Assembly: GCA_003345595.1 (NCBI GenBank)
Contig: PRDI01000099.1
Span: 1-64,000, forward strand
DNA from: Candidatus Thorarchaeota archaeon
GTDB taxonomy: Archaea; Asgardarchaeota; Thorarchaeia; Thorarchaeales; Thorarchaeaceae
Length of the DNA: 64,000 bases
Reading direction: 5' to 3'
Under the pieces are notes generated by a model. The model searched no databases. It saw nothing but the letters and a program-made list of their open reading frames with translations, and had not been told where the DNA came from. A program made the position numbers and the translations under genes. Position 1 is the first letter of the stretch, and every line of letters begins with the position of its first letter. Shown in pieces: positions 20,051 to 62,509 of this stretch.

Positions 20051-21277
20051 ATGAGAAAGACCTTGCCGCCTCTGATTTCACTTCTGTTGGTCACATGCAT
20101 GTTGTGGTCTGCACTGATAGTGCCATTGGAGGCTGCGCCGCCACCGGGCTGGAGCGGCGATGACAACTTGGCATTCCTGCTCGAACTGAACGGGACATCT
20201 GCTTATTACTCCAATTCGAGCCATCCAATACCTGTCGACTTGTCGACCAACCTGACCATGGAACTCTCAATAGACGTAGGCGCCGCCCTGAAACTCTGGA
20301 GTGGTCTTTTTGTGATGAAGTACTTGGCCATACCCATAGTGAATCAGCCCTTCGAGTTCCTCGGGCTGTCATTGCCTGCAGGCTTGGAAGAAGTGTTGAT
20401 CAACACTTCGTTTCCGCTGTTGGGCGAGTTGGGTGGGCTTAATCTGATCACTGGAACAGTCGAAGGTGTGTTCTCATTTGTCTATGAACTTGATTCGGAT
20501 CCGGGGACGAACGTCACAGTGAGTCAGAACTTTGTTCTTCAGCTTGGGCCCGTTGGCCCGGCAGCACTCCTGTCTGTTGCCGGCCTCATAACTGTCGGGT
20601 TCACGATAACATCTGTCTTTGGTCTGCTGCTCTCACTCGATGAGTTTCAGCAAGGGATAATGGCCGCAAGGAAGATGAGAGGAGCCAAGAAGGCCTCTGA
20701 TGTTGGTATATTCCCACGTGCTGTCGTCCTCAGAAGGCATCCGAAGAAGGACACAGAGAAGGTCAGCAAGGAGGAACTCGTGAGGCGCGTAGGCGAGGCC
20801 GCCCGTGGAGGATGGGACGGGAAGCGATGCCCGAAGTGCGGCAAGAAGTGGACTCCTGAAACCACAAGCTGCCCCAAGTGCAAGCTGGATCGTCAGTCGG
20901 CAGTGGCCTACTTCTCTCAAGATATCGCGGAGTATGCTCCTAAGGCCCTCAACGTTGTGAAGCCAAAGTCCAAAATACCAGTTGGACGATTCTCAAGGCG
21001 ACTCAGACTGAAGCCCGAGAAGGGTGGGGCATTAGCCGCGGCGTTGACTGACATGGGTGTCTTCCAGACACGGAGTGTCAAGACTCCACTTATGAAAGTG
21101 GCACTGTCTGGGATGACCCTCTCCGGTGTGTACTTGAGCTGGACGCAGGTCATTGGTGGGGCCATTCCTTCCTGGCTAGACATATTGCTGTTCACATGCG
21201 CCGGACTAGTGATTTCGGTACTCGTGGCCTACTTCATGAAATGGCTTGCACGTATTCCAAAGCTTGGTTATGACTAG
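20051..21277 (+). CDS. Membrane protein: ectodomain, TM, zinc ribbon, two C-terminal TMs
   Basis: Signal peptide, N-glycosylation sequons, CPKCGKKW...CPKC, hydrophobic hairpin at the C-terminus. Confidence 0.8.
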   Translation: MRKTLPPLISLLLVTCMLWSALIVPLEAAPPPGWSGDDNLAFLLELNGTSAYYSNSSHPIPVDLSTNLTMELSIDVGAALKLWSGLFVMKYLAIPIVNQPFEFLGLSLPAGLEEVLINTSFPLLGELGGLNLITGTVEGVFSFVYELDSDPGTNVTVSQNFVLQLGPVGPAALLSVAGLITVGFTITSVFGLLLSLDEFQQGIMAARKMRGAKKASDVGIFPRAVVLRRHPKKDTEKVSKEELVRRVGEAARGGWDGKRCPKCGKKWTPETTSCPKCKLDRQSAVAYFSQDIAEYAPKALNVVKPKSKIPVGRFSRRLRLKPEKGGALAAALTDMGVFQTRSVKTPLMKVALSGMTLSGVYLSWTQVIGGAIPSWLDILLFTCAGLVISVLVAYFMKWLARIPKLGYD

Positions 21278-45718: not shown

Positions 45719-46069
45719 TCAGTGGGCCTCCTCCTTCTCGTCCTTCTTTTGATACTCAGGGACAATCGTGCCCTCCTCCACTGTTCCTGCTTCAAGCGCC
45801 GCCTCCGCCACCTTCCTATCAACCAGAAAGATGGCCATATCGGGACAAATCAGTTCACAAAACTCGCAATTCACGCAGGCGTCAATATCACAGGCAGTGA
45901 CTGGATGGTATCCCTTGCGGTTGTACTTATCCTCTGTCAAGCACAGGACGTGCTTGGGACAGAATTCCACACACAGACTGCATGCCTTGCACTGTTCCTG
46001 CAGGATGACGAGGACTTTCTCTCTAGTCCTCGGGGGTTTGGGTGTGATCGGCTTGCGAACAGTTGTCAT
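45719..46069 (-). CDS. korD: 2-oxoacid:ferredoxin oxidoreductase delta (ferredoxin) subunit
   Basis: [24 protein letters not shown]; first gene of the operon. Confidence 0.9.
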
Positions 46070-46274
46070 TCAGGCGCACTCCGTTGACAGTCTGCCGTAT
46101 GTCTTTGTCCCTAGATGGACTGGTCTGGACAGAGCCCGGTCTTAGTTGAGGTTGACCAGAAGTAGCAGGTATATGAGCCTTACCTTAGTGCTGCCGCACG
46201 GGTCGTGAAGTATGACCACAGTTAAGAGGTAGCACTACAAATCAGACGACAACACGATGATGGTGTGGTAGGCC

Positions 46275-46745
46275 TTGTCCGACGACGAGCCAAACGAGGA
46301 AGAGCTGGCCAAGTCGTTGAAAGGCAGGACCTTGCGGGTCTACTGGTACATGCTGCGTCATCCTGTGCCGATGACTGCACGGGAGATTCAGCGTGGTGCC
46401 GCCCTTTCCAGTCCCTCGCTGTCTATGCACCACCTTGAACACCTTAGGCTGCTAGGATTGGTGGATAAGGATGTTCATGGTCAGTATACAGTGAGACGGG
46501 ACGTGCGTGTCGGGGTTCTCAAGCTATTCGTCGGGAGGGGTCGGCTCATGGTGCCCCGATTTCTCTTCTACGCGACCTTCTACACCTCTGTGACTGCTGC
46601 ACTTGCCACGATGATACTGGGCACCGGCCACACCGATTCGTACTTGATCGTTCTGCTTGTCCTTCTGACATCAGTCTGTGTGGTCCTGTGGTACGAGTCA
46701 ATGAAGATATGGAGGGAACAGCCATTTCCAGAGCAAGAAGACTAG
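46275..46745 (+). CDS. Membrane-anchored winged-helix regulator (wHTH + 2 TM)
   Basis: LKGRTLRVYWYML...AREIQR...SSPSLSMHHLEHL, then two TM helices. Confidence 0.85.
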   Translation: MSDDEPNEEELAKSLKGRTLRVYWYMLRHPVPMTAREIQRGAALSSPSLSMHHLEHLRLLGLVDKDVHGQYTVRRDVRVGVLKLFVGRGRLMVPRFLFYATFYTSVTAALATMILGTGHTDSYLIVLLVLLTSVCVVLWYESMKIWREQPFPEQED

Positions 46746-46828
46746 GTTCTAAGAGTAGAACTAATTGCCATATCGCGCAAGTCAATACGGACGGTTACTT
46801 TCCGGTGGTACTGTCCTGGAGTGAATCT

Positions 46829-47755
46829 ATGCACATCTTGCTCCGATCATTTGCCCTAGCTCCTATCCTGCTGCTCCTGCTGATAGGAGGAACACTGTTT
46901 CAGCCAAATCCTCTTTGTGCTACTGTCAGCGAGGAGTCCGCTGGTGGCGAAACCTTTGCCAACTATAGCGACAATCCGGATCTTTCACTCACGTATCACT
47001 CCCTATGGAACGAAACAGAAACCCCTGTTTATTCAGGTGACAGAATCTCGGGCGACAGGGTGGTTCTCACAGGTACTTGGTCGCCTTCTGGCACGGTTGC
47101 CGAGAGCTGGATTAACGTGAGCGCGACCGCAATCCCAATGAATATCTCTAGTCAGAACCCGTCCAGCTCAGTTTCGATTGACACGCGAGGGCTGGGGAAC
47201 AACGCCACCTGTATCATCACGGTCTTTGCATTGCTGCTTAACGGGTCCACTATCAATCAGACATTCAGCAATGTCTTCATTGGTAACTTCTTTGTTCCTC
47301 ATGTCAGGGTGCTATCTCCTAACGGTGGCGAGCACTGGACAGGCGCTAACAACGTGACCTGGTTTGGCTGGGACAACAACACTGACGAGTCACTGACCTA
47401 TGAAGTACTATTATCATCTGACTCAGGGACTAGCTTCCAGCTTCTTGCCACACATCTCTCGTCAACATCGTACCAATGGGATTGCACGGGTTTTCTCAAT
47501 CTGAGTACCTACATGTTCGAGGTTCGTGTCACAGATGGTATCTACGTGTCATTTGACAGGTCTGATGGGACTTTCACTGCAGGAAGCATTCCCATAACGA
47601 CGACCACTACTACTACGACCACGACCACAACCGCGAATACAACAACTACTACTATCGACAACAGTCTCATTGTTGGCTTCTTCATCTCTGCGGCCATGAT
47701 TTCGAGCGCGATTATGGCGCTCATAGTTTACTATGTGGCCAAGAGATGGTACTGA
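46829..47755 (+). CDS. Cell-surface glycoprotein: Ig/FN3-like domains, poly-Thr linker, C-terminal TM
   Basis: Signal peptide, many NxS/T sequons, VLSPNGGE...YQWD...VRVTDG, Thr run, TM + KRWY. Confidence 0.85.
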   Translation: MHILLRSFALAPILLLLLIGGTLFQPNPLCATVSEESAGGETFANYSDNPDLSLTYHSLWNETETPVYSGDRISGDRVVLTGTWSPSGTVAESWINVSATAIPMNISSQNPSSSVSIDTRGLGNNATCIITVFALLLNGSTINQTFSNVFIGNFFVPHVRVLSPNGGEHWTGANNVTWFGWDNNTDESLTYEVLLSSDSGTSFQLLATHLSSTSYQWDCTGFLNLSTYMFEVRVTDGIYVSFDRSDGTFTAGSIPITTTTTTTTTTTTANTTTTTIDNSLIVGFFISAAMISSAIMALIVYYVAKRWY

Positions 47756-47780
47756 TTCAATGCTTGATTGTCTGAACAGA

Positions 47781-48671
47781 TTAAAGAAATCTGTCAACAA
47801 GTGCATCTGTGCTGATGACATGTTTGTGAAGGCCAAGTTCCTCGGGATCTATCCCCATTGCCAGACCAAGCAGCTGCGTGTAGTAGAACACAGGAAGATG
47901 ATACCTGTCGCCAATCTCCTTGTTTAGCTGAGGTTGAGACATCTCGAACTGGAGGTGGCAGAACGAACAGACATCTACTATGCACTCCGCCCCTGCCTCA
48001 ATCATGTTGTCAAGCTTCTCACGTGCAATGTCTATGCTGACGGGCACATTTGACCCGCGGACTCCACCACCAGCGCCACAGCAGAGGAACTTCTCCTTGT
48101 ACTTCACACTCTCTGCACCCGTGACTTCGACAAGCTCATCAAGGAACGTGTATTTCTGAGTCTGCTTCCAAGGCCTGAGCTTGGTCGGCTTCAAGAGGTG
48201 ACACCCATAGTGTGTTCCGACCCTCAGCCCGTTCAGAGGGCGGGTCACCTTCTTGCGCAGGTTCTCCAACCCGAGGTTGTAGATGATCTCGACGAGGTGC
48301 TTTGCATCAGCCTTTGCCTCATACTTCACACCAACACTCTTGAGGATCCGCTGGACCTCCTTGAGCCTCTCGGGGTTCTCATGGACCACGTGGAGGGCCT
48401 CTTTGAATGTCCCATAGCAGCCATTGCAGCCTGTGAGTATGTCATGGCCTGCTGCTTCTGCGAGTGCGAGGTTCCGTGAGGCGAGGGCAAGCCATGTGGG
48501 CTCACTGAATGACCTGATCACCCCGGGGGCAGGACAGCAGCTCGCGCCCTGCAAGTCCTCTATGTCAATCCCAAGTTTCGGGAGCACAACCCTGATGCTC
48601 TTCTCCACATTGGGAAACCGGTTGGGCATGACGCATCCCAAGAAGAATGAATAGGTCTGAGCTTGCGTCAT
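47781..48671 (-). CDS. hdrB: Heterodisulfide reductase subunit B (copy 1)
   Basis: FLGC, CCPAPG, CNGC, GCH, CCGAGGG, CSFC. Confidence 0.95.
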   Translation of the reverse strand: MTQAQTYSFFLGCVMPNRFPNVEKSIRVVLPKLGIDIEDLQGASCCPAPGVIRSFSEPTWLALASRNLALAEAAGHDILTGCNGCYGTFKEALHVVHENPERLKEVQRILKSVGVKYEAKADAKHLVEIIYNLGLENLRKKVTRPLNGLRVGTHYGCHLLKPTKLRPWKQTQKYTFLDELVEVTGAESVKYKEKFLCCGAGGGVRGSNVPVSIDIAREKLDNMIEAGAECIVDVCSFCHLQFEMSQPQLNKEIGDRYHLPVFYYTQLLGLAMGIDPEELGLHKHVISTDALVDRFL

Positions 48672-52886: not shown

Positions 52887-53774
52887 TTGAGAAACTGGCT
52901 AGATGAGATGGACTACCTGAGCCTAGGAAGACGAGTTCGATTGCACCGTTTGATGTATGAGCATGGCCCGGGCAATGGGCACATGTTGTTACTTCCCATC
53001 GATCAGGGCCTTGAGCATGGTCCTGCCGATTTCATACCCAATCCTCCGTCAGGCGACCCAGATTTTCAGTTCAGGCTTGCTTTGGAGGGCGGCTTCTCGG
53101 GAATCGCACTCCATCTAGGGCTTGCTCAGAAGTACGCGACAAAGTATGCTGGAACCGTGCCAATCATCCTAAAACTCAACGGAAGGACGACGATTCCTCC
53201 CGAGAGCTATCCAATATCCCCTATGACCGCCTCAGTAGAAGACGCGGTACGAATCGGGGCAGACGCGGTGGGCTATACTCTATTTGTTGGCAGTCCAAGG
53301 CAGTATGACGACTTCAACCAGTTCAGGAAAGTAAAGGCTGATGCAGACCGATATGGAATGCCAGTCATCATGTGGGCGTATCCAAGGGGACAGGCAGTCG
53401 ATGCCAAGGGCGGGCGTGACTCTCTCTTTGCCGTGGACTATGCAGCACGTGTTGCAAACGAGCTCGGTGCTGACGCAGTGAAGATCAGCATGCCTGCCGA
53501 GGACCCCAAGACGAAGTCGCTTCAGCCAAAACCGTATGACACGCTGAAACTGAGCTATGAGAAGTCCGTAAGGAAAGTCATAAAGTCGGCAGGCAAGACA
53601 CTCGTCCTGTTCTCAGGTGGAGGCAAGATCAGCGATGAAGAGCTGTTGCGCAAGGCGAGCGTATGTCTTGAGGAAGGTGCGGCTGGTCTGATTTTCGGCA
53701 GGAACATCTGGCAACGTGAGTGGAACGATGCACTGGCGATGGCTAGGGCTCTCAAGGACTTGATGGGGGCCTAG
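52887..53774 (+). CDS. Class I (DhnA-type) fructose-bisphosphate aldolase
   Basis: PIDQGLEHGP, LKLNG, WAYPRG, GADAVK Schiff-base Lys, SGG, GRNIWQ. Confidence 0.92.
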   Translation: MRNWLDEMDYLSLGRRVRLHRLMYEHGPGNGHMLLLPIDQGLEHGPADFIPNPPSGDPDFQFRLALEGGFSGIALHLGLAQKYATKYAGTVPIILKLNGRTTIPPESYPISPMTASVEDAVRIGADAVGYTLFVGSPRQYDDFNQFRKVKADADRYGMPVIMWAYPRGQAVDAKGGRDSLFAVDYAARVANELGADAVKISMPAEDPKTKSLQPKPYDTLKLSYEKSVRKVIKSAGKTLVLFSGGGKISDEELLRKASVCLEEGAAGLIFGRNIWQREWNDALAMARALKDLMGA

Positions 53775-60267: not shown

Positions 60268-60444
60268 TCACTTTCCAGAGCGGAGTAGACAGACAGCCAT
60301 GCCAATCAGGATGACTCCGGCGACGAGCGACAGAGCATTCCAAGTGGGGTCATAAGGAACCGTGCCCGGAGTGAACCCAGCAAGTATCACCAGTACAATT
60401 CCGAAAAGGACGAGCAGAATGCTCGGTAGCGCTAACCTTCTCAT
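60268..60444 (-). CDS. 58-aa 2-TM microprotein (not in ORF track)
   Basis: MRRLALPSILLVLFGIVLVILAGFTPGTVPYDPTWNALSLVAGVILIGMAVCLLRSGK; ATGA overlap with the upstream stop. Confidence 0.78.
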   Translation of the reverse strand: MRRLALPSILLVLFGIVLVILAGFTPGTVPYDPTWNALSLVAGVILIGMAVCLLRSGK

Positions 60445-61727
60445 GTTCCAATCGCCTTCGACTCGATTTCCTTTGGAGGTTCATGTGATTCCTCGTGCGA
60501 TTCAGGAGTGCTGTCTGACGACACGTACCTTCGTGTCCATAAGAAGCCGATCGATGCACAGAATAGGGACAGGAAACACACGACAGCTACATTCCCTATG
60601 GAGTTACGGGGAATGATCCCCCCACCAGATAACAGGGGGGATGGACGAAAGCTCTCTCCTGTACGTGCGTCCACTGAGTACTCAGATACACTCACTCCCC
60701 ACGGCCCGGTTACATTATACTCGAAAGTCCATGTGAGTCTGAACTCCCAAGATTGCGACGTAGGTATGGCATACGGCCAGGGCTCAAGCCGAAGGCATAC
60801 CCGTCTCTCCGAGTAGCTCGCCACATACGAGATTGCCACGTTTCTGGCAAGACTCACATCAACAAGCCCTTCTGTGCCAGCTTTCGGAATGTCAAGAGCC
60901 ATGTATCCAAAATAGAAGACTCGTCCAGTTATTGCGTCGATTTCTATCAGCACGCCTTGAAGCCACTTGACTGGAAAAACCTCACCGGTTGGTATCGCCA
61001 ATTCGATGTGGTATACCGGACGTGAGTAGTTCTCAGGCGGGCCGGGTTCTGTGTCGACCTGTCGGTACTCCAACCTAGTGTCAATCAACCTTGTAGAGCG
61101 GGGAAGTGTGTAGTTATGTGAATAGAGGAAGTCGCGAGAAATGACTCGTGCTTGGCTCGGGTCTATCACTCTGCCATCTGGGTTCATGGGGGTAAGAATC
61201 CAACTATGATGGGACGAGAACTCGGATGACCAAACCTCGTAATACATAGCGACCTTCCCTGACACAGAGTTCACAGAAACACGAACGTAGAGCCCATGGA
61301 GCATCATTGGCCCCGTATATGAGTCGTTAGTGAACGTGTAGTGCCAGAGTCGTCCTTCCATACCGCCCTGTGGATTGTCAAGGACTCCATCGCTGACTAG
61401 TGACTTGAGATTACTGTCGATGAAGGCATTTGCTAGATCAAGACCCGCAGTGTCCGAGATGGCTGGCTCATCAAGGGTCAACAGGTAGGTGTGTGAGAAT
61501 CCTAGGGCCTCCTGCCATTCACCAGTGAAGATGACCGAATCACTATCATTGGCCGCCAGCGATGCATACACAGTCTCCGATATCGGTTCCCCCGGCAGAG
61601 GGATTGTTAGGGCATCATTCCTGGTACTCTGATAGATTGTATAGGGAACTAGCATACCCATGACTACAGAAACAAGCAGTACGGCGGTGATGGGAGTCTG
61701 GAAGCCTACTGAAGACATAGGAATCAC
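60441..61727 (-). CDS. Doubly anchored extracellular protein with three PepSY-like repeats
   Basis: N- and C-terminal TMs; VSVNSVSGKV, IEIDAITGRV, YSVDARTGE; sequons. Confidence 0.75.
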   Translation of the reverse strand: MIPMSSVGFQTPITAVLLVSVVMGMLVPYTIYQSTRNDALTIPLPGEPISETVYASLAANDSDSVIFTGEWQEALGFSHTYLLTLDEPAISDTAGLDLANAFIDSNLKSLVSDGVLDNPQGGMEGRLWHYTFTNDSYTGPMMLHGLYVRVSVNSVSGKVAMYYEVWSSEFSSHHSWILTPMNPDGRVIDPSQARVISRDFLYSHNYTLPRSTRLIDTRLEYRQVDTEPGPPENYSRPVYHIELAIPTGEVFPVKWLQGVLIEIDAITGRVFYFGYMALDIPKAGTEGLVDVSLARNVAISYVASYSERRVCLRLEPWPYAIPTSQSWEFRLTWTFEYNVTGPWGVSVSEYSVDARTGESFRPSPLLSGGGIIPRNSIGNVAVVCFLSLFCASIGFLWTRRYVSSDSTPESHEESHEPPKEIESKAIGT

Positions 61728-61838
61728 GATTGCCTAACGATGCCGTATGTTGACGTGTGCGGGAATAACTCTATCATTAGAGCTGCCAAAGGCATCAATG
61801 ACCTAGTTTTAGAGCTGATCGGATTCATCACCATGAAT

Positions 61839-62333
61839 CTATGAACCAGTGCGCGCGTACCTCCAAAGGCTCAGAGTTTCAAACCAGAACACGCACACCG
61901 AAAACACCAGTACCACCGTGAGAAGGAGAAAGGCCGGTGTTGGAACCCAGTCAAAGAGCAGCAGAGTGGCTATCAAGAAGCACGTTGTGAAGACTGCGTA
62001 GAAGACGTAGCGTGGGATGAGGAGCCTTCCTATGACAACAAAGAATGTGAGTATCCCTGTCTTGACCACCTTGGCTGCAAAGAAGCCCTCTTGAACATCC
62101 CTTTCCACTAGGCCGAGTTTCTCCAGCTTGTCCAGATGATACAGAGCAAGGCTGGGGCTAGAGATATTGGTCCTGCGCTGAATCTCCCTCGCGCTAAGGG
62201 GCTTGTTTTGTCGCAAGAGAAAGATGTAGACCGCCAGAGTCCTGCCCTTGACCTGATCGACATTTCCTGGAGCGCCCAAACGAAACATACTCCCGCTTGG
62301 CGCCGGGTAGATAGACTGGAAACTTATGAGCAT
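61839..62333 (-). CDS. Membrane-anchored winged-helix regulator (wHTH + 2 TM), paralogue of 46275..46745; true start may be downstream
   Basis: VKGRTLAVYIFLL...AREIQR...SSPSLALYHLDKL...PRYVFYA + 2 TM. Confidence 0.85.
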   Translation of the reverse strand: MLISFQSIYPAPSGSMFRLGAPGNVDQVKGRTLAVYIFLLRQNKPLSAREIQRRTNISSPSLALYHLDKLEKLGLVERDVQEGFFAAKVVKTGILTFFVVIGRLLIPRYVFYAVFTTCFLIATLLLFDWVPTPAFLLLTVVLVFSVCVFWFETLSLWRYARTGS

Positions 62334-62509
62334 TCCGCATTTCCAGAGTTACGATTGTGCTCCAACTTCGAGCTGTACAAGCTAGGACAAAGAGCACACA
62401 CGCAAACTGATTACGGATGTCCACCCGCACGGCTCGGAATGTTGACCATATCCAAGTCAATCCATCTAGGGCCACAGCTGCTCGGGCGAAGTTTCCTAAT
62501 AAGCTAGGT

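Follow-up and report, generated by a model that had tools for sequence, protein, structure and literature searches.

What does a very small membrane-tethered winged helix-turn-helix (wHTH) protein read, and what does it do to the gene for a surface protein that stands right beside its own? These questions are raised by a locus of a Thorarchaeota archaeon, lying in a stretch of 64,000 nucleotides that was analysed as a whole and is called the window below. The window holds two copies of this gene pair, each composed of a regulator and a partner, and their features are collected in Table 1.

Table 1. Genes and candidate regulatory elements of the two regulator-partner cassettes, in window coordinates.
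Feature	Position	Strand	Description
20-nt motif CCTAGATGGACTGGTCTGGA	46110..46129	+	About 165 nt upstream of regulator 1; within the genome common to copy 2 only
Regulator copy 1	46275..46745	+	156 aa, TTG start; predicted ArsR/MarR-type wHTH, beta-hairpin linker and 2-TM hairpin; both termini predicted cytoplasmic
6-4-6 palindrome GTTCTA-AGAG-TAGAAC	46746..46761	+	Perfect; right after the regulator 1 stop codon; candidate operator
TATA-like box TAATTGCC	46762..46769	+	Adjoins the palindrome; putative promoter of partner 1, from sequence
Partner 1	46829..47755	+	308 aa; signal peptide/TM, then a sequon-rich, possibly Ig-like ectodomain and a poly-Thr stalk, with a conserved TM at the C-terminus (VYYxAKR)
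58-aa 2-TM ORF	60268..60444	-	ATGA overlap with partner 2; possible third gene
Partner 2	60441..61727	-	428 aa; ectodomain of 350 aa that carries PepSY-like DAxTG motifs, flanked by TM helices at both ends
Cassette 2 box 2 AGCTCTAATGATAGAGTT	61767..61784	-	39 nt ahead of the partner 2 GTG
Cassette 2 box 1 AGCTCTAAAACTAGGTCA	61799..61816	-	22 nt past the regulator 2 stop
Regulator copy 2	61839..62288	-	149 aa counted from M16; same domain layout predicted as for copy 1; frame stays open to 62333
20-nt motif, second copy CCTAGATGGATTGACTTGGA	62451..62470	-	Upstream of regulator copy 2

The original prediction had read the open frames 46275..46745 and 61839..62333 as two paralogous wHTH proteins. 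Both frames exist, and their products are indeed paralogues, with 44% identity over 133 residues (BLASTP, E 8e-39). The start of copy 2 is more likely M16, at 62288, than 62333, as its orthologues agree, and the start of copy 1 is kept in position among its orthologues with TTG, ATG or GTG as the codon. The only Pfam families matched by the regulators are the wHTH families HTH_20, ArsR, MarR and LexA_DNA_bind; against the HTH_20 cut-off of 27, copy 2 scores 30.0 bits and lies above, and copy 1 scores 22.4 bits and lies below. Trans_reg_C found no match in the regulators, NCBIfam HTH_metalloreg gave all four paralogues of the genome 18-21 bits, below its cut-off of 55, and a sequence search of the PDB with the family profile returned nothing at E<=0.01.

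An AlphaFold model of copy 1 (pLDDT 93.2) places the wHTH at residues 8-73, a beta-hairpin at 85-94, and two TM helices at 95-117 and 122-147 with a connecting loop of about 4 residues, in agreement with the predicted membrane-tethered wHTH whose hairpin has almost no loop. The stretch from the wing to TM1 consists of residues 74-94 alone, about 20 residues that form one short helix and the beta-hairpin, and the hydrophobic helix pair is kept across 124 family members. Foldseek matches of this model are confined to the wHTH, and residues 6-96 align in VIA at Z 9-10 with CadC, CzrA, MarR-DNA and NolR-DNA; the fold matches listed comprise ArsR, MarR, IclR and other winged-helix proteins, and the OmpR/PhoB type is absent among them. 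Both an ectodomain and a ligand-binding domain are missing from copy 1. As the regulator has no other input domain, it would have to take up its signal within the membrane or at its surface.

The top VIA match of copy 1 (Z 10.4), residues 1-90 at the N-terminal end of a Rio2 kinase chain, does not come from a transcription factor. Winged helices are known to act also as protein-binding modules, and the protein could accordingly be conceived as a membrane adaptor, whose winged helix binds a protein in the insertion, glycosylation or sorting of the neighbour, with another factor sitting on the palindrome. We consider such a role improbable, given that the recognition-helix signature S-S-P-S-x-A-x-H-H-L-x-K-L fits the ArsR/HTH_20 profiles, that the cassette-specific palindrome has the symmetry of a dimer, and that the recognition helix, almost invariant family-wide, differs between clades in step with the half-site.

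The surface proteins next to the two regulators were predicted to be unrelated to each other, and a profile comparison bears this out (hhalign probability 1%). The ATG of partner 1 at 46829 has GGAGTG 8 nt ahead of it, and a GTG at 46805 is an alternative start. Its ectodomain has 3.1 sequons per 100 aa, and there is no Pfam or NCBIfam match to the protein. Its look-alikes according to a language model carry Big_13, Big_3_3 or TIG, at weak scores of <=0.82, and its residues ~105-305 match portions of giant ORFs, 1000-4600 aa long, from related genomes; together these faintly suggest an Ig-like ectodomain. The C-terminal TM of partner 1 is conserved (FI.AAxIxSAxxAxxVYYxAKR), whereas the signal peptide and the stalk vary. 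Partner 2 reaches the PepSY profile PF03413 below threshold (E 0.05, 14.4 bits, cut-off 24), and a D-A-x-T-G-x-V-x-x-F motif that resembles PepSY is kept in seven of its orthologues. The 58-aa ORF that overlaps partner 2 is retained solely at a locus of the same genus (L028), where it is truncated.

The regulator family comprises 622 clusters at E<=1e-10, whose names are uninformative, and ranges over the Bathyarchaeia, Nitrososphaeria, Methanomethylicia, Thermoproteia and Asgard archaea. When 120 Thermoproteia genomes were scanned with the profile, full-length family matches occurred solely in frames of ~150 aa; those weak matches in long frames that were examined as candidates for ArnR proved to be TrmB-like or a 5-TM wHTH protein. 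The genome under study codes for four paralogous regulator-partner cassettes. A co-oriented, membrane-anchored, sequon-rich gene downstream of the regulator had been predicted, and both copies in the window have one, but the order is not fixed, for the partner lies upstream of the regulator in two of the four cassettes. Across 24 other genomes of the family, cassette 1, with the regulator directly upstream, is kept in 22 of the 22 that have a partner 1 orthologue.

Enrichment of signal-peptide and TM genes immediately downstream of homologues had been put forward as a check on the pairing. Anchored neighbours are enriched on both sides: an N-anchored protein stands at -1 in 47/69 loci and at +1 in 47/73, vs 32% at positions +-3 to 6, these being figures for phylogenetically related loci with genes and TM segments called by a crude ORF and Kyte-Doolittle script. 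The +1 neighbour is co-oriented with the regulator in 64 of 73 cases. These observations support a link between the regulator and adjacent membrane-anchored extracytoplasmic proteins that is conserved and non-random across phyla. The partner families number at least six, mutually unrelated, and the class of the partner follows the clade of the regulator, with 27 changes on the tree vs 53 when shuffled (0/200 shuffles as low). The modularity that had been anticipated is thereby seen in a form where each partner family is bound to a regulator clade of its own.

Natural fusions occur in the family: some regulators have two additional TM helices, and others an ectodomain with a TM at the N-terminus. 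These fusions indicate that regulator and partner form one physical and functional unit. One of them (P0091) was modelled with AlphaFold in place of a co-fold, and its added half is of low confidence (pLDDT 50-70). The C-terminal halves of the fusions were no more similar to the free small 2-TM partners than a reversed-sequence control. A search for fused forms of >=371 aa found none, which is weak evidence, and a 408-aa ORF at 20051..21277, tried as a fused cassette, is not detectably related to the family profile (hhalign 0.2%).

Between the regulator and partner 1 lies the palindrome GTTCTA-N4-TAGAAC, which is perfect in 15 of the 22 orthologous cassettes, with its arm sequence kept and its spacer variable; three of the 22 have no box within the first 45 nt. 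Orthologues have TATTTA, TATGTA or TAATTA at the position of the TATA-like box, and the gap between the two genes seems to hold a separate promoter for the partner. The right arm of the palindrome overlaps the expected BRE/TATA position, so that part of the arm conservation could be due to the promoter itself. Related boxes of the form G(T/C)TC(T/A)AA-N2-4-TAGA(G/A)T stand 33-67 nt ahead of the partner start in all four cassettes of the genome, as they do at Asgard loci of classes B and C and at two loci of Bathyarchaeia; the two-box geometry of cassette 2 recurs in L028, L066, L053 and L024.

Weight matrices of the box were scanned over the 2.73-Mb genome, and the correctly oriented intergenic top matches fall at the cassettes. 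A matrix made without copy 1 ranks the copy 1 site 3rd-4th, and one made from other genomes ranks cassette 3 1st, cassette 4 4th and copy 2 22nd, and misses copy 1. The motif was first spotted by eye, partly in loci that were later scored; what supports it independently is copy 1 with 21 orthologues, the matrix that drew solely on other genomes, and cassette 4. Elsewhere in the genome, high-scoring matches are found within coding regions or ahead of one cytoplasmic gene (C49:9610), and a wider regulon is unsupported.

The palindrome starts right where the regulator coding sequence stops, and a stem of 6-7 bp is possible, as would suit a terminator or processing hairpin between the regulator and partner transcripts in place of protein-binding DNA. 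This we regard as highly improbable. At -6.2 kcal/mol (z -1.2; 24/200 shuffles fold as well) the stem is weak, and no T-run follows it; the arms are conserved in sequence and do not co-vary, with one-sided loss of pairing in L092 and L093, whose left arm is disrupted with no matching change in the right; and in class B cassettes a related box is found upstream of the first gene. Rfam has no RNA family in 45900..47900.

A further element, the 20-nt motif upstream of the regulators, is not conserved in L028, a 91%-identical orthologue, and for this reason it was dropped as a candidate operator; a third match to a 14-nt upstream motif, at 53107, is antisense within a gene and was taken as chance. 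The conserved palindromic box ahead of the partner gene is a new observation, and as read from the nucleotide sequence it would make the partner at least a regulated target.

Hence, we propose, with a probability of roughly 60%, that regulator 1 is a minimal transmembrane transcription regulator of its neighbour's promoter that takes its input from within the membrane. The ArsR/MarR-type winged helix would lie on the cytoplasmic side, kept against the membrane by the beta-hairpin linker of about 15 residues and anchored by the two-helix hairpin. A dimer of the regulator would bind the 6-4-6 palindrome, between its own stop codon and the neighbour's TATA-like box, and so set the transcription of the adjacent surface protein, which is predicted to be N-glycosylated and anchored at its C-terminus. 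The position of the site just upstream of TATA/BRE would suit an activator, and repression may be possible too. The most likely input would be contact with the unusually conserved C-terminal TM helix of the partner, and such contact would create a feedback loop on the supply of the surface protein; the alternative input within this proposal would be the state of the lipid membrane, as put forward for ArnR.

Two of these features, the very short linker from the wHTH to TM1 and the location of the candidate binding site at the gene of a membrane-inserted protein, could also be those of a passive tether, which would hold the surface-protein gene at the membrane and couple its transcription, translation and insertion (transertion) with no response to a signal. 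We deem a bare tether quite improbable: it leaves unexplained both why some regulators are fused to ectodomains or to additional TM loops and the need of each paralogue for its own partner class, and coupling needs no site at the BRE/TATA position.

The input might also be a general property of the membrane, such as lipid composition, potential or envelope stress, with the neighbour merely regulated and never contacted. The placement of the box ahead of the partner gene agrees with this, as does the acceptance among partners of unrelated TM segments and differing TM numbers. Such an input would be akin to that proposed for ArnR, whose signal has been suggested to come from the state of the membrane and which undergoes cleavage upon failure of lipid cyclisation (PMC12107092). 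We hold sensing of the membrane without contact to be rather unlikely, if worth serious thought, in that the regulator is stably fused to extra TM segments or ectodomains, regulator clade and partner class pair strictly one-to-one, and the C-terminal TM of partner 1 is strongly conserved.

Returning to the regulator that takes its input inside the membrane, we tentatively entertain a wider and distinctly less probable version of this proposal. The cassette might be an ancient, modular and kinase-free two-gene signalling unit of the TACK and Asgard archaea, in which the hairpin-anchored wHTH senses whether its cognate single-pass surface protein is there, or in what state, by helix-helix contact within the membrane and feeds back on the promoter of that protein via a family-wide box; specificities would change by exchange of the ectodomain partner and occasionally by its fusion to the regulator.

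The regulation of the cell surface in archaea, notably those of the Asgard group, is little understood. Here the family provides a very small and easily expressed regulator, a precise predicted operator and an obvious adjacent target gene. Megabase-scale contigs from Thermoproteia also carry members of the family; as these are possibly complete genomes of cultured species, EMSA, reporter assays and deletions could be within reach. If the hairpin does read the TM helix of the partner, it would constitute a simple and widespread alternative to two-component signalling and provide a handle for predicting individually regulated surface proteins.

Among bacteria, the pairs ToxR/ToxS, TcpP/TcpH, CadC/LysP and VtrA/VtrC each consist of a membrane-bound regulator and an adjacently encoded second membrane protein with which it works from the membrane, a logic that regulator 1 and its partner would share. 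Regulators of the ToxR/CadC type combine a wHTH of the OmpR/PhoB type with a single TM helix and a periplasmic domain; in contrast, the wHTH of regulator 1 is of the ArsR/MarR type, its anchor is a hairpin, and it has no outer domain, the whole ectodomain coming from the partner. The resemblance to ToxR/ToxS-type pairs is one of analogy rather than homology. The soluble repressors of the ArsR/SmtB and MarR families, which typically bind palindromic operators as dimers, have the fold and the recognition-helix signature in common with the regulator family. They differ in the C-terminal dimerisation helix and the metal or ligand site, both of which the regulator lacks, its chain running into the membrane.

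The original prediction knew of no characterised example. This is right for the regulator family itself, but ArnR/ArnR1 (PMC6396743) and a census of archaeal transmembrane transcription regulators (TTRs; PMC10269533) had been overlooked. ArnR and ArnR1 of Sulfolobus acidocaldarius are membrane-bound one-component regulators, each combining a wHTH at the N-terminus with a C-terminal pair of TM helices (PMC6396743), which control the promoters of the archaellum and of the Aap and Ups pili via defined boxes (PMC6396743, PMC12107092). Regulator 1 has the same arrangement of wHTH and TM helices, a likeness of architecture; in ArnR, however, HAMP-like and sensing domains separate the HTH from the TM helices, and the 156-residue regulator 1 does without them. 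The TTR census by Demey et al. 2023 reports about 4 TTRs per archaeal genome, with enrichment in Thermoproteota (PMC10269533). Copy 1, with its predicted DNA-binding domain and at least one TM region, falls within the definition of a TTR given there (PMC10269533). The census goes by domain content, and the regulator family, the gene-pair structure and the box are not described in the passages drawn on here (PMC10269533). The kind of regulator is thus already known, from ArnR and from the TTR census, and the regulator family is a new variant within that kind. Homologues of ArnR have been reported from Sulfolobales and Desulfurococcales only (PMC6396743, PMC12107092), whereas the present family spans TACK and Asgard lineages and forms a cassette with its target or partner.

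The prediction that the window encodes two paralogous proteins combining a winged helix-turn-helix (wHTH) domain with a two-helix transmembrane (TM) hairpin is borne out: both ORFs are present, with 44% identity over 133 residues (E 8e-39). In Pfam, both copies matched winged-helix DNA-binding families only (HTH_20, ArsR/HTH_5, MarR and LexA_DNA_bind), with the HTH_20 threshold exceeded by copy 2 and not reached by copy 1; NCBIfam matches to ArsR, SdpR and Lrs14 were weak and far under the cut-offs. The confident AlphaFold model of copy 1 (pLDDT 93.2; input alignment of 124 sequences) displays four helices and a two-stranded wing at residues 8-73, a short helix and β-hairpin at residues 80-94, and two long helices (95-117 and 122-147) connected by a segment of about four residues. 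Structure searches (Foldseek E ~5e-3; VIA-align Z 9-10) recovered matches confined to the first ~95 residues, namely ArsR/SmtB, MarR and IclR regulators, some of them solved with DNA. Given this restriction of the matches to the wHTH and the layout of the TM helices, the model places the winged helix and both termini of copy 1 in the cytoplasm, with no part outside the cell. A further window-encoded protein of 408 aa also ends in a 2-TM hairpin; hhalign detects no kinship between it and the wHTH-2TM family (probability 0.2%).

Coordinates of the cassette components and other features in the window
Feature	Position	Strand	Description
408-aa protein	20051-21277	+	signal peptide, ectodomain, TM helix, cytoplasmic CPKC..CPKC zinc ribbon, C-terminal 2-TM hairpin
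20-nt motif, cassette 1	46110-46129	+	CCTAGATGGAYTGRYYTGGA, TGGAY repeats 10 nt apart
Regulator copy 1	46275..46745	+	ORF, 156 aa
Box, cassette 1	46746..46761	+	perfect palindrome GTTCTA-AGAG-TAGAAC directly 3' of copy 1 stop codon
Partner 1	46829..47755	+	signal peptide/TM, ectodomain, Thr run, C-terminal TM helix and basic tail
58-aa ORF	60268-60444	-	two TM helices; ATGA overlap with end of partner 2
Partner 2	60441..61727	-	TM helix at both ends, 350-residue ectodomain
Regulator copy 2	61839..62333	-	ORF
20-nt motif, cassette 2	62451-62470	-	CCTAGATGGAYTGRYYTGGA, TGGAY repeats 10 nt apart

With a profile built from 18 members, a search of 1.84 billion representatives yielded 1015 clusters (50% identity) under the E<=1e-3 threshold and 622 under E<=1e-10, with named genome contigs from Bathyarchaeia, Methanomethylicia, Nitrososphaeria, Caldarchaeum, Thermofilaceae, Thorarchaeota and Promethearchaeota. 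There are four paralogues in the window's genome and 1-7 copies in each of the 24 other genomes of its taxonomic family (24/24), while about 60 of 120 sampled Thermoproteia genomes possess full-length members, some on megabase-scale contigs. Positions that hardly vary across the family fall within the recognition helix (S-S-P-S-x-A-x-H-H-L-x-K-L), where TM1 begins (P-R) and where TM2 ends on the cytoplasmic side (W-Y/F-E). The Thermoproteia locus L100 (G078:C4:230869-231762) codes for a different membrane-bound protein of 297 aa, with a wHTH at its N-terminus and five TM helices after it.

Both regulators adjoin membrane-anchored partners, which profile comparison indicates to be unrelated to each other, as originally predicted. 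In a survey of 84 loci, using a simple ORF and hydropathy script with crude gene and TM calls, the protein encoded at -1 began with a TM or signal segment in 47/69 loci and that at +1 in 47/73, versus 32% at positions ±3 to 6; the Fisher p of 5e-12 for this enrichment is overstated, as the loci are related. In 64 of the 73 loci, the +1 gene has the same orientation as the regulator. At least six mutually unrelated partner families can be distinguished: small proteins of 85-130 aa with two TM helices; ~240-aa N-anchored proteins encoded upstream of the regulator; the class to which partner 2 belongs, ~400-430 aa long with a TM helix at either end; ~630-aa N-anchored proteins, with a putative β-propeller read from sequence motifs, lying at +1 or divergently at -1; partner 1; and, in the fourth cassette of the window's genome, a protein of 605 aa that combines an ectodomain with five TM helices. 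When the regulators were placed in a quick maximum-likelihood tree, partner class tracked regulator clade (27 label changes versus 53 when shuffled; 0/200 shuffles that low), and both window copies share one clade with Thor- and Promethearchaeota sequences. A full-length partner-1 orthologue occurs in 22 of the 24 other genomes of the taxonomic family, and in all 22 it is immediately preceded by a regulator gene of the same strand. Hence, the predicted association with surface proteins is not a matter of random neighbors.

The partner 1 ectodomain carries 3.1 N-glycosylation sequons per 100 residues. A long ORF from 46688, overlapping regulator 1, was rejected as an over-extension; ATG 46829 has GGAGTG 8 nt upstream, an arrangement kept in a same-genus orthologue. 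In the same-genus locus L028, the partner is followed by a truncated homologue of the 58-aa ORF, and no homologue was found in more distant cassettes. At L003 (contig C11 of the window's genome, G000) and loci L039-L084 of class B, in which the partner lies upstream of the regulator, we observed a conserved trio coding for an N-anchored ~240-aa Thr-stalk protein, the regulator and an NreA-like DNA repair protein; the first gene is followed by a terminator-like GC-rich hairpin and T-run (GATGGGC..GCCCATC..TTTTATTT).

The cassette-1 palindrome, initially spotted by eye, is followed by a TATA-like TAATTG. It is perfect at exactly the same position in 15 of the 22 orthologous cassettes, and at least the right arm plus TA is retained in 18-19, with 4-nt spacers varying (AGAG, ACAA, AAAC, AAAA, AAAT, AGAT, AGAA, GAAA, TGAA and CGGT) and no conservation further 3'. 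A site for a dimeric protein fits these sequences better than an RNA structure, because the arms are conserved without co-variation, the left arm alone has decayed in two loci, and the potential hairpin would fold only weakly (-6.2 kcal/mol, z -1.2). Two related boxes (AGCTCTA-N4-TAGAGCT) accompany copy 2 and its relatives at L028, L066, L053 and L024, at conserved offsets of +4 to +24 and +54 to +57 past the regulator stop. In class B cassettes, including the third of the window's genome, the upstream partner is preceded by TGTTCA-N6-TGAACA and then (C)AAAACGTAGAGTCATAT; in the fourth cassette, CGTTCTAAAACGTAGATTCAT lies 33 nt upstream of the partner ATG, and two Bathyarchaeia loci show GTTCTGAAACGTAGAC immediately past the regulator. 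Regardless of gene order, the box faces the partner gene in every case.

Weight matrices were scanned over the whole 2.73-Mb genome. One built without copy 1 ranked the copy-1 site 3rd-4th genome-wide; another, from other genomes only, ranked cassettes 3 and 4 1st and 4th and copy 2 22nd, and failed to reach the copy-1 site in this genome. As the remaining high matches lie within coding regions, the box appears to be cassette-specific. Recognition-helix variants (S-M-H-H-L-E-H/R, A-L-Y-H-L-N/D/K-K and A-L-H-H-L-T/N-K) and half-sites (GTTCTA, GCTCTA and TGTTCA) both differ by clade; their parallel variation across few clades is only suggestive. An intergenic near-twin of the copy-1 palindrome, CGTTCTAGGATTAGAACT (C49:9610-9627), ~76 nt upstream of a gene for a 454-aa cytoplasmic protein, may represent an additional target or have arisen by chance.

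The system thus comprises a membrane-anchored wHTH protein encoded in a gene pair that is conserved, as is the palindromic box at the predicted promoter of the partner. From this computational evidence, we propose that the regulator binds the box as a dimer and thereby controls partner transcription; the position of the box just upstream of a TATA-like element would suit an activator. Being devoid of any other domain, the regulator must receive its input from the membrane. A possible contact between its hairpin and the partner is favored by two lines of evidence. First, the C-terminal TM helix of partner 1 (FI.AAxIxSAxxAxxVYYxAKR) is conserved far better than its signal peptide or stalk. Second, about 20 distinct proteins (e.g., P0038, P0064 and P0091) fuse the regulator to two extra TM helices and an outer loop of 50-90 residues, and in P0134 and P0163 an N-terminal ecto or membrane part and a TM helix precede it, which suggests that the regulator and its membrane partner work together as a single unit. 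The added halves resemble the free small partners in sequence no better than a reversed control, and in the fusion model the added half is too uncertain for judging helix packing. Co-transcription of regulator and partner is neither needed nor indicated. A separate promoter for the partner seems to lie in the gap, and in class B loci a hairpin with a T-run, resembling a terminator, stands between the genes.

Upstream of the regulator genes, the 20-nt motif CCTAGATGGAYTGRYYTGGA occurs exactly twice in the 2.73-Mb genome, ~165-180 nt before both window copies in the same orientation; it is retained in the same-genus cassette 1 orthologue and absent from the 91%-identical copy 2 orthologue. Within 46160-46274 and orthologues L089-L097, a TATA-like (G/C)TAT(A/T)(T/A)GAGCCTTACCTT lies ~100 nt, and CAGAGTTAAGAG ~50 nt, before the regulator 1 start codon. 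Taken together, these sequences suggest either an extended, conserved 5' leader or a pair of promoters in the interval shared with korD, which is divergently oriented.

According to a 2023 census (PMC10269533), transmembrane transcription regulators are common in archaea; together with ArnR, this makes the general kind of regulator an already known one. In the literature searched, we found no description of this family, its cassette structure or its box. The closest parallel is ArnR/ArnR1 of Sulfolobus, which share the end-to-end layout and likewise regulate surface structures (PMC6396743, PMC12107092); they are set apart by their described HAMP and sensor domains, both lacking here, and are reported from Sulfolobales/Desulfurococcales only. 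The ToxR/ToxS-type systems are analogous in logic but differ from this family in DNA-binding fold and topology.
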